Source: an uncultured Chloroflexia bacterium (GTDB lineage Bacteria > Chloroflexota > Limnocylindria > Limnocylindrales > CSP1-4). Taken from it: a stretch of 64,000 nt of DNA. A model generated the notes under the pieces. It made no database searches. It saw only the letters and a list, made by a program, of their open reading frames with translations, and was not told where the DNA came from. Shown one piece after another: positions 46,979 to 51,651 of this stretch (position 1 is the first letter of the stretch; each line of letters starts with the position of its first letter). The position numbers and the translations under genes are program-made. Where the stretch lies: NCBI GenBank assembly GCA_963752475.1, contig CAVVYR010000006.1, positions 160,001 through 224,000 on the forward strand, in the 5' to 3' direction.

Positions 46979-47514
46979 GTGAGTCAAAGAAGCCAACCGT
47001 CGCGACCGTCTGGCTGGACGGGTGCTCGGGATGCCACATGTCCCTGCTGGACATGGACGAGCGCATCCTCGACATCTTCACCCGGTCGGACCTCGTGTAC
47101 AGCCCGCTGGTCGATTTCAAGGACTATCCCGACGAGGTGGACGTCTGCCTCGTCGAGGGTGCGGTGTCGAGCCAGGACGATCTGGACAAGGTCAAGAAGG
47201 TGCGCGAGCACACCAAGACGATCATCGCCTTCGGCGACTGTGCGGTCACCTCGAACGTGCCCGGCATGCGCAACCCCTTCGGCACGCAGGCCATCCTCGA
47301 CCGCGCCTACCACGAGAACGTCACCGTCAACCCGCAGACACCCACCGAGAACGTGCCGCCGCTGCTGGCGATGTCCAAGCCGGTCCATACGATCATCGAC
47401 GTGGACGTCTTCCTGCCCGGTTGCCCGCCGTCGGCGGACCTCATCTACACCATGCTCGACGACCTGCTCTCCGGCCGCGTGCCGGAGGTCGCCGGCTCGC
47501 GGTTCGGCCGCTAA
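46975..47514 (+). CDS. hoxY: [NiFe] hydrogenase small subunit HoxY
   Basis: [20 protein letters not shown]. Confidence 0.92.
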
Positions 47515-47528
47515 GGGAGCCCCCACCC

Positions 47529-48947
47529 ATGAGCAAGACCATCACCATCGATCCGGTCACGCGGATCGAAGGCCACTCCAAGATCACCATCCAGCTCGAC
47601 GAGGGCGGCCAGGTCACGGACGCCCACTTCCACGTCACGCAGTTCCGAGGGTTCGAGAAGATCGTCGAGGGCCGTCCGGTCCACGAGATGCCCTCGATCA
47701 TGGCCCGTATCTGCGGCATCTGCCCGGTCAGTCACCTCGTCGCCTCGGCCAAGGCCGTGGACGACATCCTGGCCGTGGACCCGCCGCCCGCGGGTGCCGA
47801 CATCCGCCGGCTCATCAATCTTGGCCAGATCGTGCAGTCGAACGCGCTCTCGTTCTTCCATCTCTCCAGCCCTGACCTGCTCTTCGGCTTCGACGCCGAC
47901 ATGTCCAAGCGCCACATCGTGGGCGTGGCCCAGGAGAACCCGCAGCTGGCCAAGGACGGCATCGCCCTGCGCAAGTGGGGCCAGCAGATCATCGAGCGCC
48001 TCGGCGGCAAGCGCATCCATCCCGGCGGGGTCATCCCCGGCGGTGTGGCCGAGCCGCTGACCGAGGAGGTCCGCGACGAGATCCTGGCGGGTGTGCCGGA
48101 GGCCCTCGAGCGCATCACCCGCACCATCGAGTGGTACAAGAGCAAGATGATGGGCTGGGAGGAGGAGGCCACCCACTTCGGTGACTTCCGCTCCGCCTTC
48201 ATGGCCCTCGTCGACGAGAAGGGCAACGTGGACCACTACGGTGGCCGCCTGCGCTTCGTCGATGCAGACGGCTCGGTGCTCGAGGACTTCGACCCCAAGG
48301 ACTTCAACGACTACATCGGCGAAGCCGTGGAGCCGTGGTCCTACCTCAAGTCCACGTACTACAAGCCCATGGGCTACCCCGACGGCATCTACCGCGTGGG
48401 CCCGCTCGCGCGCATGAACGTGGCCGAGGCCTGCGGTACGCCGCGTGCCGACGAGGAGCTCAAGAAGTTCCGCTGGCGCGTCGGCCGGGTGGCGAGCTCG
48501 TCCTTCCACCAGCACTACGCGCGCCTCATCGACCTGCTCCACTGCATCGAGAAGATCGACCAGATCCTCAACAAGCCGGAGATCATGTCGACACATGTGA
48601 CGGCCACCGCGGGCATCAACCGCAACGAGGGCATCGGCTGCTCCGAGGCTCCGCGTGGCACCCTGATGCACCACTACAAGGTGGACGACAACGGCCTGGT
48701 CGAGTGGGCCAACCTCGTCATCGCCACCGGCCACAACAACATGGCCATGAACCGCTCGGTCGCGCAGGTCGCCAAGGCCTACGTCAAGTCCGACAAGATC
48801 GAAGAGCCGATGCTCAACCGGGTCGAGGCGGTCATCCGTTCCTACGACCCTTGCCTCAGCTGCTCGACGCACTCGCTCGGTGACATGGCGCTGGACATCC
48901 AGCTCCTGTCGCCGGAGGGCGAGGTCATCGACCGCATCAAGCGCTGA
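47529..48947 (+). CDS. hoxH: [NiFe] hydrogenase large subunit HoxH (group 3d)
   Basis: RICGICP (L1) and DPCLSCSTH (L2) with a cleavable C-terminal tail. Confidence 0.94.
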
Positions 48948-48963
48948 CCCGCTGCCACCGGAC

Positions 48964-49500
48964 GTGAGTCCACTCGAGAGCGCCGCCCCTGGGGGAGGGA
49001 GCGGCGCTCTTGCGCGTTCCGTGCTGGTCCTCGGCTATGGCAACACGTTGCGGCGGGACGACGGTGCCGGGGCCGTGGCTGCGCGCCTGCTGGCGGCCGA
49101 TCCGCGCCTTGCTCGCCCCGAGGTCGAGGTGCGCGAGGCCTATCAGCTGCTGCCGGAGATGTCGATGGACATCGCGGAGGCCACGCTCGTCGTCTTCGTC
49201 GATGCCGACATGCGCGGCCTGCCCGGCGCTCTCGAGATCCACGAGATCGACCCTGGGACCGCAGCGCGTGACGATGCCGATGCGCGAGGCGATCCGGGAG
49301 CGTCATCGCACCACGTCGGAGGTGGCGAGCTGGTGGCGCTGGCCGCGACGCTCTCAGGTCGCGCGCCGGAGGCCGTGGCCATCGGCATCGGCGTGGCCGA
49401 CCTGGAGCTGGGGGAGGGCCTCAGTCCGGCCGTGGAAGCGGCCCTACCCAGGGTCGTCGAGATCGTGGCCGACCTCGTGGAGGAGCACCTCAGCCATTGA
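48964..49500 (+). CDS. hoxW: Hydrogenase maturation protease
   Basis: VLGYGNTLRRDDGAG, VFVDA, SSHH, GEGLS; follows hoxH. Confidence 0.82.
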   Translation: MSPLESAAPGGGSGALARSVLVLGYGNTLRRDDGAGAVAARLLAADPRLARPEVEVREAYQLLPEMSMDIAEATLVVFVDADMRGLPGALEIHEIDPGTAARDDADARGDPGASSHHVGGGELVALAATLSGRAPEAVAIGIGVADLELGEGLSPAVEAALPRVVEIVADLVEEHLSH

Positions 49501-49557
49501 GGCTGCCAGCTGGAAACCCGGACTCCACAGGCCTGGGATCGACCTCGCTCGGGGTCG

Positions 49558-49736
49558 GGAGCAGCCACCTCGACGGGGCAGCAGCCACCTCGACCGGGAG
49601 CAGCCACCTCGACGGGGACGGCCACCTCGACGGGGCACAGCCACCTCGACGGGGCGCAGCCACCTCGACGGGGAGCAGCACCTCGACCGGGAGCAGCACC
49701 TCGACGGGGCGCAGCCACCTCGACCGGGAGCAGCAC
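49558..49736 (+). repeat. Tandem array of nine 18-20-bp units, consensus GCAG(C)CACCTCGAC(C/G)GGG
   Basis: CACCTCGAC counted 9 times at ~19-bp spacing. Confidence 0.9.
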
Positions 49737-49983
49737 CGACCGCTCTCGCTGCTGCCGCCGTGTCGCCTCCATCGACACCGCACGCAGCTTGTGGTCAGGC
49801 GTCGCCAGGGCCGACCCTACCGGCCGATCCGGTGGATCCAGATGGACATATGTCGGCGAGGTCGACGGTAGTCCGACGGGCTGGTGGTCCTGGTGGTCGG
49901 ATCGACGTAGACGTGGCGCCGGCTATGCCCAGCCACGCTCGGTGCAGGCCATCGATCGCCTCGATCGGCCGGATCTCGTGACT
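49737..49983 (+). repeat. 247-bp direct repeat copy 1, interrupted at its 3' end by the IS
   Basis: Matches 51285-51531 with 2 substitutions. Confidence 0.93.
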
Positions 49984-50053
49984 GCTATGAAGGGGGCCTC
50001 ACTGGTGAGACAGTGGGTTCTCTTCGGAACCAGCACCAGGAGGCCCGGAAGCC

Positions 50054-51086
50054 ATGTTATACGCCGGATTGGACCTGTCACGGAGGAAGCTCGACGTCCA
50101 TGTCCTCGACGAGGACGGGGCCACGGTCGAGGCGCTCGCGGTCCATCCCGATGCCGACGCGCTGCGGACACTCGCGGAGCGCTTCCCCGGGCCCGTGACC
50201 GCGACCATCGAATCGATGAACGGGGCCCGCTTCGTGCATGACGAGCTGCAGGGCCACGGCTGGGACGTGCTCATCGCCGACGCGGCCAGGGTCAAGGGCC
50301 TCGCACCGCTCGCGGCCAAGACCGACGAGATCGACGCGCGGGTGCTCGCGATCCTCGCCTGGCGCGACCTCGTGCCCGCGGTCTGGCTGGTCCACCCGGC
50401 CATCCGTGCCGAGCGCGAGCGTGCCCGCTATCGGCTGTACCTCGTGCGCCATCGCACCTCGATCAAGAACCGGGTCCACGCCACGCTCTTCGCGTTCGGC
50501 CACAGCGTGCCCGCCACGGACCTCTTCGGGGTCCGGGGCCGGGAGCTGCTCGCGGCGCTCGAGGTCCCCGAGCCCTGGGACCGGACGCTCGCAGCGAGCC
50601 TCGCGCGGCTCGACGCGCTCGAGGCCGAGATCCGCGGCTGCGAAGCCGAGCTGGCACGGCTCGGGGCCGACCACGAGTACGTGCCGCTGCTTGCGGACGG
50701 TGCCGGGGGTCGGGCCCATCCTCGCCTACACCATCGCCGCGGAGATCGGCGACATCGGCCGCTTCGCGAGCGCCAAGCGGCTCGTGGGCTACACCGGGCT
50801 CTGTCCCCGGGTCTACCAGTCGGGCGGGACCGACCGGCGCGGGAAGCTGGCCAAGACCGGCCCGAAGTACCTGCGCTGGGCGCTCGTCGAGGCCGCGGTC
50901 CACGCGGCGAGCCATCCACGCTATCGGAGGAAGTACCAACGCACCAAGCGCCGGCTCGGCAAGCAGCGGGGCAGTGGGGTGGCACAGGTGGAGCTGGCGC
51001 GCGAGCTGGCCACCGCCATCTGGTACATGCTCACGCGCCAGGAGCCGTTCCGAGCGGCAGGCCCCCCTCGTAGTCTGGTCGCCTGA
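50054..51086 (+). pseudogene. IS110 DEDD recombinase/transposase with one frameshift at ~50691
   Basis: GLDLS, IES, KTDEIDA (RuvC DEDD); then TVPGVG..RFASAKRLVGYTGLCP..QSGG..LRWALVEAA in another frame. Confidence 0.88.
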
Positions 51087-51200
51087 CGACCCTCGTGTGA
51101 CTTGGGCCGCCGCTGTCACCTACCAGCCAGGTCCTCCCAGCAGGAGGCACATAGAGACATGAGACGCGTTACCGCATCCGCTCCACGACCGCCGCCGGCT
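51060..51200 (+). ncRNA. Candidate bridge/seek RNA of the IS
   Basis: CTCGTAGTC (51067-75) is the reverse complement of target GACTACGAG; GTGACT (51097-102) matches the left target; CATAGAGAC (51150-58) matches the donor end 51211-19. Boundaries approximate. Confidence 0.6.
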
Positions 51201-51220
51201 TGACGATCTTCATAGAGACT

Positions 51221-51288
51221 ACGAGCCCGACTACGGTCGGCTCCAGCGACAGGCGACTACGAGCCTGACTACGGTCGGCTCCAGCGAC
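51221..51288 (+). repeat. 38-bp hairpin-containing unit, 1.8 copies
   Basis: ACGAGCCYGACTACGGTCGGCTCCAGCGACAGGCGACT; stem GAGCC(y)GAC / GTCGGCTC. Confidence 0.88.
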
Positions 51289-51531
51289 CGCTCTCGCTGC
51301 TGCCGCCGTGTCGCCTCCATCGACACCGCACGCAGCTTGTGGTCAGGCGTCGCCAGGGCCGACCCTACCGGCCGATCCGGTGGATCCAGATGGACATATG
51401 TCGGCGAGGTCGACGGTAGTCCGACGGGCTGGTGGTCCTGGTGGTCGGATCGACGTAGACGTGGCGCTGGCGATGCCCAGCCACGCTCGGTGCAGGCCAT
51501 CGATCGCCTCGATCGGCCGGATCTCGTGACT
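51285..51531 (+). repeat. 247-bp direct repeat copy 2 with intact IS target
   Basis: Near-identical to 49737-49983. Confidence 0.93.
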
Positions 51532-51651
51532 ACGAGCCTGACTACGGTCGGCTCCAGCGACAGGCGACCACGAGCCCGACGACGGTCGGCTCCAGCGACA
51601 GGCGACCACGAGCCCGACGACGGTCGGCTCCAGCGACAGGCGACCACGAGC
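51532..51651 (+). repeat. Three tandem 38-bp hairpin units
   Basis: Units at 51532, 51570, 51608; no variable spacers. Confidence 0.9.

Follow-up and report, generated by a model that had tools for sequence, protein, structure and literature searches.

Does the 3' end of a small insertion sequence from an uncultured Chloroflexia bacterium encode the RNA that guides the element to its target? The element lies in a 64,000-nucleotide (nt) stretch of contig CAVVYR010000006.1 (assembly GCA_963752475.1, positions 160,001 to 224,000 of the forward strand), which is called the window here and from whose first letter all coordinates are counted. A sequence-only reading had recognized an IS110-family element at this locus and proposed that short segments of its 3' end match both the flanking DNA and the element's own end, in the manner of bridge RNA (seekRNA) guides. 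Our analysis indicates that this is very probably correct: we interpret 49984-51220 as an IS1111-type member of the IS110 family that specifies, at its 3' end, a two-module bridge RNA some 110-115 nt long, each module having a stem, an internal loop and a hairpin. The family assignment is borne out by Pfam and NCBIfam matches, and every string quoted in the earlier reading was found where it had been placed.

A 250-nt direct repeat, present at 49734-49983 and again at 51282-51531 (99% identical with three differing positions), sets the limits of the element, its first copy being occupied and its second empty. The left junction reads CTCGTGACT followed by GCTATGAAG and the right junction CATAGAGACT followed by ACGAG (GACT/ACGAG at 51217-25), while the second unit contains the intact empty target that had been reported there. 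Only GACT is common to both junctions in this comparison (49980-83 and 51217-20), so the crossover lies somewhere within these four bases and the boundaries are ambiguous to the same extent. The insertion has no terminal inverted repeats and no target duplication past the short core, as is characteristic of the IS110 family.

Target guides and the flanking DNA

Both proposed target guides are present: CTCGTAGTC matches the right target at 9 of 9 bases and CGTGTGACT matches the left target at 7 of 9. When the stretch 51040-51200 was subjected to 5000 mononucleotide shuffles, a right-target match of 9 nt was reached in 37 of them. The left-target match is not significant by itself, as its longest exact runs are 6 nt (CTCGTG at 51092-97 and GTGACT at 51097-102) and 2374 of the 5000 shuffles do as well; allowing two extra guide bases, all nine bases of CTCGTGACT are found in 51092-102 (CTCGTG-TG-ACT versus CTCGTG-ACT). 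What supports the left guide is therefore its place in the fold together with covariation among relatives, rather than the length of its match.

Relatives were collected by scanning the intact recombinase against one genome per species; 249 were found and 80 loci were kept. Their hosts are mostly bins of Chloroflexota (Limnocylindrales and others) and Actinomycetota, with a few Dormibacterota and Acidobacteriota. The 63 tabulated loci are the rows between L004 and L078 (49-87% identity) in which the match reaches the C-terminal part. Left out of the table were L047, L051, L052 and L068 (matches ending at residues 226-290, short of the C-terminus), L071 and L074 (C-terminal fragments to residue 336-337), and the distant rows L069, L073, L075-L077 and L079-L083 (34-37% identity). 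Seven distant loci (L073, L075, L076, L079, L080, L082 and L083) were examined separately as comparators, and L073, L076, L079 and L082 were scanned for a guide match. The 3' ends of the tabulated loci align well, showing a constant framework interrupted by short variable stretches, GGCCC-C(about 8 variable)CTGGTCGCyTGACGACCCTC(3-4 variable)TGAnnTGGGCC, and the guides are the variable positions of this otherwise conserved segment. One close copy (L044, 74% protein identity) is on a 1266-nt contig binned as Bathyarchaeia; with a contig this short, a binning artefact is more likely than transfer to an archaeon.

The covariation of guide and target that had been suggested as a check is clearly observed, as both guides track the flanks of their own loci far better than those of others. 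For the right guide, the reverse complement of the 5' loop segment was compared with the DNA following the conserved CATAGAG at all loci with a placeable loop and right end. The mean agreement is 6.21 of 8 positions across 58 loci (46 distinct guides); when guides were re-paired with the flanks of loci bearing another guide, it falls to 3.61 ± 0.14, with a maximum of 4.12 in 2000 permutations. For the left guide, the five bases that precede GA in the left flank were compared with those preceding the invariant GA in the 3' loop segment, giving a mean of 3.70 of 5 across 47 loci (32 distinct guides), versus 1.65 ± 0.15 for permuted pairs (maximum 2.19 in 2000). Keeping one locus per distinct guide gives 3.69 versus 1.76 ± 0.19 for these 32 loci. 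In addition, the left flank of an element remnant elsewhere on the same contig (L003) ends with TCGTGTGACT, identical to the last 10 bases of the guide stretch 51092-102 (51093-51102). The matches at the 3' end are not due to chance.

The two target matches overlap on GACT in the window copy. Among the relatives, left junctions end with GA(C/A)T in 47 of 50 loci, every left guide has GA four bases before the outer stem, and in several cases (e.g. L015 and L040) the left-target end has nothing but GA in common with the element's right end. Because GA alone is common to all relatives, it is likely the core dinucleotide, and we take the sharing of GACT in the window copy to be a coincidence of target and donor. 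The base that follows the core complement in the right guide is T; its complement, A, fits the donor (CATAG-A-GA) and not the target, where the base at this handshake position is always T, G or C (A in 0 of 49 left flanks). A donor-matching base of this kind is what section 11 of PMC11208158 predicts under the handshake-guide rule of IS621, a hint, from a phylogenetically related sample, that a comparable handshake guide may be present here.

Folding of the 3' end and the putative donor module

The consensus fold was predicted with RNAalifold from 55 distinct sequences, comprising window positions 51055-51175 and their homologues (alignment A1). Three helices are predicted: the outer stem of the target-binding module (module 1), its inner hairpin, and a second hairpin further downstream (CCTCC/GGAGG). 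The outer stem pairs GGCCC (51060-64) with GGGCC (51104-08) and is extended by GC (51057-58) with GC (51109-10), while the inner hairpin pairs GGTCG (51077-81) with CGACC (51087-91) around the apical loop CCTGA (51082-86). Between these two stems is a symmetric 12x12 internal loop (51065-76 and 51092-51103). Both target guides fall in unpaired columns of the consensus and so lie in the internal loop rather than in stems, the arrangement that the sequence-only reading had set as a check on its proposal.

Standard pairs occupy 97.2% of the 823 cells of the three helices in the 55 sequences, and 10 of the 15 pairs show compensatory change, as in GGTCC/GGACC, GGCGC/GCGCC, AGCCG/CGGCT and GACTG/CAGTC. 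None of 500 shuffles equalled the real alignment in any of five measures, and sliding one partner by 1-3 columns left at most three compensatory pairs and at most 55% pairing. A single-sequence fold recovers both stems of module 1, and the 58-nt module folded alone has a z-score of -1.99.

The second module is probably a donor loop that holds a copy of the element's own right end. Its inner hairpin shows compensatory change in three of five pairs; its outer stem was predicted by group-wise RNAalifold alone (the 13 closest sequences) and has less evidence than the other stems. The earlier claim that CATAGAGAC matches the donor end at 9 of 9 bases holds, as the segment is repeated at 51211-19, and a 9-nt match was reached in 4 of 5000 shuffles of the stretch given above. 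This putative left-donor guide occupies the 3' side of its loop, as the left-target guide does in module 1. ATAGAGA is nearly invariant at this position across the 55 sequences; one locus (L017) has a joint change, to ATAAAGAG in guide and right end alike.

Two candidates for a right-donor guide were rejected. AGCAG (51139-43), which the earlier reading had offered as a weakly visible guide, is present in the window copy but is not conserved: the hairpin loop that contains it has GCG or ATG instead in L004 and L005, which have the same left-end start (GCTATGAAG). The segment AGGCCCCC (51059-66) is complementary to 49992-99 at the left end, but 264 of 5000 shuffles do as well and no covariation is seen where the outer stem has changed (L013 and L027). 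No right-donor match beyond CATAG was found, and CATAG is already implied by the inverted repeat.

A stop codon in the target loop

The tnp stop codon, TGA (51084-86), lies inside the 5-nt apical loop of the module 1 inner hairpin. The right-target guide spans codons P338, R339 and S340 and the first base of L341 in the 343-codon open reading frame (ORF), and the stem strand GGTCG covers codons L341, V342 and A343. Since the hairpin encloses the stop codon, the right-target guide is simultaneously codons 338-341, and a change of target alters the C-terminal tripeptide. The claim that the first guide lies within the last transposase codons is therefore correct, as is that of a very compact, dual-coded end of about 135 bp: the non-coding right end is 134 nt (51087-51220) and the modules span about 110-115 nt.

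This layout is conserved among the relatives, which include soil and sediment bacteria from several phyla: of the 61 loci with the loop pattern, 57 have their in-frame stop within or at the apical loop (exceptions: L008, L063, L064 and L078). Their C-termini have the form GP-xxx-LVA before the stop, or a four-residue variant, and xxx differs wherever the guide differs. In the 55-sequence alignment, third codon positions within the stem change only jointly with their pairing partner, whereas any of C, T, G and A is found at the third position of the final codon, within the loop. Two sets of comparators from beyond this clade are arranged differently: L073, L076, L079 and L082 (Acidobacteriota, 35-37% identity) have a 9-11-nt match located 19-29 nt past the stop codon in a 160-nt end, and the IS5075-like L084 has a 9-nt top-strand match 97-105 nt past the stop codon in a 255-nt non-coding end.

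In the running text of PMC11208160 and PMC11187229, the term "stop codon" is absent, and in the 12 of 15 passages of PMC12288879 that were covered it denotes only an engineered tnp knockout. Durrant et al. (PMC11208160) state that their modelled flanks included 50 bp of coding sequence.

The overlap could be functional rather than merely compact, with translation tied to guide loading in cis. Under such a scheme, the ribosome would have to open the target loop in order to translate the final four codons and would terminate inside the apical loop, so that the target loop would fold only behind the terminating ribosome, beside the just-released recombinase. Each protein would then be charged by the RNA of its own element, the ratio of messenger to guide use would be set, and the C-terminal tripeptide would be tied to the target sequence. 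We consider this coupling improbable.

Recombinase, target repeat and known systems

The ORF of the window copy is split by one extra G near 50689. Its two halves match PF01548 (DEDD_Tnp_IS110, 2.7e-15) and PF02371 (Transposase_20, 4.4e-26). A second full copy of the element, at a contig end in the same genome (G000:C26, locus L002), lacks the extra base and encodes an intact protein of 343 amino acids (aa), which matches NCBIfam NF033542 ("IS110 family RNA-guided transposase") with 236 bits (cut-off 140). Neither the deepest DNA contig of run X1 nor a contig of RNA library X6 has the extra base, which could be a genuine mutation in the window copy or have been introduced during assembly.

Among proteins of solved structure, the ISCro4 and IS621 transposases are closest (phmmer E 6e-14 to IS621). 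Alignment of motifs to ISCro4 pairs GLD (D7) with GID, IES (E53) with MEA, KTDEID (D91, D94) with KTDAVD, and YQSG (S256) with YESG, by which D7, E53, D91, D94 and S256 are the presumed catalytic positions. Those of IS621 are D11, E60, D102, D105 and S241, as given in the text of PMC11208158. IS1111-group recombinases are 330-350 aa long with a GL-P----S(t)G motif (PMC11187229, section 6), and the group has subterminal inverted repeats of 7-17 bp. We place the element in this group because it has 8-bp subterminal repeats, a 343-aa recombinase with GLCPRVYQSG at residues 248-257, and its longer non-coding end at the 3' side (left 70 nt), the criteria being those in the text of PMC11187229. The subterminal repeats are longer in relatives, and left and right change jointly (ATGCAG/CTGCAT in L006, L008 and L053; ATGAAAAGG/CCTTTTCAT in L014).

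The element targets a repeat, since many of its sites are in copies of a dispersed family. In the 4.2-Mb genome, GGTGACTACGAG occurs 13 times versus 0.5 expected (for a uniform genome) and GTGACTACGAG occurs 17 times versus 2 expected. The 250-nt unit belongs to a dispersed family (65-77% identity over 90-267 nt, more than 10 loci), members of which include G000 C7:448740-448995, C29:61303-61567, C23:18316-18568, C8:221354-221606 and C24:22977-23229. Many GGTGACTACGAG and GTGACTACGAG sites lie in copies of this family, and several members bear GGTGACTACGAG. The window copies of the unit have no Rfam match. Many IS1111 and IS110 members target repeats, according to section 5 of PMC11208160. Each 250-nt unit is trailed by 38-nt tandem repeats (GACTACGAGCCyGACkACGGTCGGCTCCAGCGACAGGC; 51217-51292 and 51528-51651), of which there are two copies past the element and at least three past the empty site; the first bases of this repeat are the element's right target, and it contains a small palindrome, CCGAC..GTCGG.

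A scan of the linear copy for promoters of the sigma-70-type consensus found no promoter-like site on the + strand. A -35-like hexamer near the right end (Table 1) may be half of a promoter formed at a circle junction, by analogy with section 8 of PMC11187229 and with the text of PMC12288879: in 54 of 55 relatives, TTGA lies 18-27 nt from the end of the CATAGAG motif, and in a circular form of the window copy 17 nt would separate TTGACG from TATGAA at the left end (read by eye). For ISEc11, it has been proposed that the guide RNA is cut out of the tnp transcript (PMC11187229, sections 8 and 14). The bridge RNA in the window would most likely also be co-transcribed with tnp, cut from that transcript and then bound by the DEDD recombinase; the complex would line up the circle junction with GTGACT/ACGAG-type sites of the dispersed repeat.

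Table 1. Features of the element and its flanks in the window.
Feature	Coordinates	Strand	Basis or remark
First copy of 250-nt unit (left flank)	49734..49983	+	Direct repeat D3; ends with left target CTCGTGACT (49975-83)
IS1111-type insertion sequence, IS110 family	49984..51220	+	1237 bp; ends set by occupied versus empty 250-nt unit
Left subterminal inverted repeat CTATGAAG	49985..49992	+	Reverse complement of 51208-15
Recombinase gene tnp (DEDD_Tnp_IS110, Transposase_20)	50054..51086	+	Pfam; one extra base near 50689
Target-binding module (module 1)	51057..51110	+	RNAalifold on 55 sequences and pair counts
Right-target guide CTCGTAGTC	51067..51075	+	5' side of internal loop (51065-76); 9/9 match
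Left-target guide CGTGTGACT	51094..51102	+	3' side of internal loop (51092-51103); same sense as left target and core
Putative donor-binding module (module 2)	51112..51167	+	Outer stem GC.GTC 51112-17 with GACGC 51163-67; inner hairpin CCTCC 51133-37 with GGAGG 51143-47
Putative left-donor guide CATAGAGAC	51150..51158	+	3' side of second internal loop; 9/9 to element end 51211-19
TTGACG, -35-like hexamer	51200..51205	+	TTGA conserved in relatives
Right subterminal inverted repeat CTTCATAG (51208-15) and right end AGACT	51208..51220	+	Left donor CATAGAGAC at 51211-19
Empty target CTCGTGACT/ACGAG	51523..51536	+	Within second copy of 250-nt unit

A number of observations weigh against a bridge RNA of two modules. 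Ungapped, the 7/9 agreement of the left guide is a weak point, six right guides fit their flanks at only 4 of 8 positions (L004, L020, L028, L050, L058 and L063), and the right flank of the second copy, GACTAGATG, agrees with the guide at 5 of 8. Single-sequence folds of 177 nt (z -0.39) and 118 nt (z -0.07) are no better than those of shuffles, and being level with them neither back nor refute the structure. In the minimum-energy fold of the window copy the two target guides pair with each other (five pairs, two of them G-U), a pairing that is not conserved and arises because the target itself is a palindrome. Rfam gives no match at the 3' end, its sole match being a chance one inside the ORF (GRIK4 3' UTR element, E 0.46). 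Contigs of two RNA libraries cover only 50453-50731 of the element, inside the ORF, and possibly derive from DNA carry-over. A right-donor guide was not found, and no register on the 5' side of the second loop follows the left end across relatives. With a single joint change, covariation of the donor guide has almost no power, and L036, L062, L070 and L028 have one-sided changes. Finally, if the extra base is not an artefact of assembly, the frameshift prevents the window copy from producing a recombinase of its own.

The donor side is where an alternative has the most room. It could be that the guide function is confined to module 1, which would correspond to the short seekRNA, that 51112-51167 is a protein-binding scaffold or processing signal, and that CATAGAGAC is kept not for pairing with donor DNA but for another reason, such as a recombinase-binding site that the right end also has. 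The missing right-donor guide and the almost invariant donor segment, with one joint versus four one-sided changes, would fit this, as would the finding that an 82-nt short RNA of ISEc11 alone supported movement, the role of the long form not being established (PMC11187229, sections 10 and 14). However, the 9-nt identity to the element's own end is rare among shuffles, CATAGAGAC is on the same side of the same type of loop as the left-target guide, L017 alters guide and end together, and donor loops are reported in predicted IS1111-group bridge RNAs (Durrant et al., PMC11208160, section 12); we consider this alternative unlikely, though to be taken seriously. Slightly less probable is that the guide system is real but the window copy is a dead relic, and that the "empty target" reflects a mixed population, its unoccupied allele having been placed in tandem during assembly. 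In favour are that the genome is a bin (88.8% complete, 5.8% contaminated), that the frameshift is absent from the deepest X1 DNA contig, and that one X1 contig joins 49979 to 51255 without the element. The two 250-nt units, however, differ at three positions and are followed by different numbers of 38-nt repeats, which fits two paralogous sites; the joint is equally expected from the second unit, for which reason it was also rejected as evidence of excision, and an unoccupied target exists either way. Least credible, to the point of being nearly negligible, is that the hairpins act at the end of tnp as a signal in transcription or translation (termination, attenuation or a 3' stabilizer) and that the flank matches are coincidental or a by-product of the palindrome. 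The stop codon in a hairpin loop, the poor single-sequence folds and the palindromic target (CTCGT..ACGAG), where matching one arm to some extent entails matching the other, point in that direction, but 46 distinct right and 32 distinct left guides follow their own flanks far above permuted pairs, many targets are not palindromic, and the + strand has no T-run terminator after the hairpin. We thus retain the two-module bridge RNA as our interpretation.

The closest known counterparts are the IS1111 seekRNAs of ISEc11, ISPa11 and ISKpn4, as described in the text of Siddiquee et al. 2024 (PMC11187229) and Durrant et al. 2024 (PMC11208160). Shared features are a DEDD recombinase of approximately 340 aa with GL-P----SG, subterminal repeats, a guide RNA 3' of tnp, a top-strand match 5' of the bottom-strand match (the order also seen in the window), matches that overlap in the target, a repeated genomic target, and a -35-like box at the right end. 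In contrast to these, the target loop in the window overlaps the ORF, with the stop codon in the apical loop and the right-target guide in codons, although published overlaps are possible in figures or supplements. Long IS1111 seekRNAs are 145-170 nt (PMC11187229, section 14), versus about 110-115 nt for the window modules in a 134-nt right end. The bridge RNA of IS621 and ISCro4, as presented in the text of PMC11208160 and PMC11208158, likewise has two internal loops that each read both DNA strands, the core in both guides, left guides of top-strand sense and right guides as reverse complement (PMC11208160, section 7), and a handshake-like base. It differs in lying 5' of the gene, in the order of guides within the loops, which is reversed, and in its core, which is CT there and probably GA here; the window type also has long subterminal repeats and no identified right-donor guide, and its protein has limited similarity to theirs. 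IS5075/IS4321 (IS1111 group, targeting the inverted repeats of Tn21-type transposons) have the same family and subterminal repeats, but only 26% protein identity and a guide approximately 100 nt past the stop codon, with no ORF overlap.

Several further observations were made at or near the element. A hairpin in the 70-nt left end, GGTTC-loop-GAACC (50013-50031), is just upstream of an AGGAGG ribosome-binding site and, in many relatives, is replaced with compensation by GGTTG/CAACC; its role may be in translational control or recombinase binding. The L003 remnant (G000:C6:98861-99358, minus strand) is a 498-bp internal piece that corresponds to element positions 241-742, at 99% identity and with several gaps of one base, and is flanked by an inverted pair of approximately 26-nt sequences (GGACAGATGTCGGTCGAGTCGACCGT and its complement) that look like the ends of another small mobile element. 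Contigs of run X1 leave the element ends into other sequence (at 49978 and 51224-51250), suggesting further insertion contexts in the community. Directly upstream of the first 250-nt unit, at 49556-49734, are at least seven tandem repeats of 18-19 nt (consensus approximately CAGCCACCTCGACGGGG). By motif, upstream ORFs at 47022-49500 resemble the large subunit of a [NiFe] hydrogenase (DPCLSCSTH) and a protease of hydrogenase maturation.

The window element adds to the IS1111-type bridge/seekRNA systems, its notable feature being a compact, clade-conserved layout with the stop codon enclosed by the target loop and one guide lying in codons. A complete natural bridge-recombinase system is legible here without data other than sequence: the recombinase, the two target guides, a putative donor guide, an occupied and an empty site, and a dispersed repeat with further sites are all visible. 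The missing right-donor guide bears on how IS1111 elements with long subterminal repeats recognize their own ends. As a small element (1237 bp, with an RNA of about 110-115 nt) that has dozens of naturally retargeted relatives, it may also be of use for engineering. The guide is written in codons and yet is freely retargeted, at the price of a hypervariable C-terminal tripeptide, and the stop-in-loop layout makes a coupling of translation and guide maturation testable.

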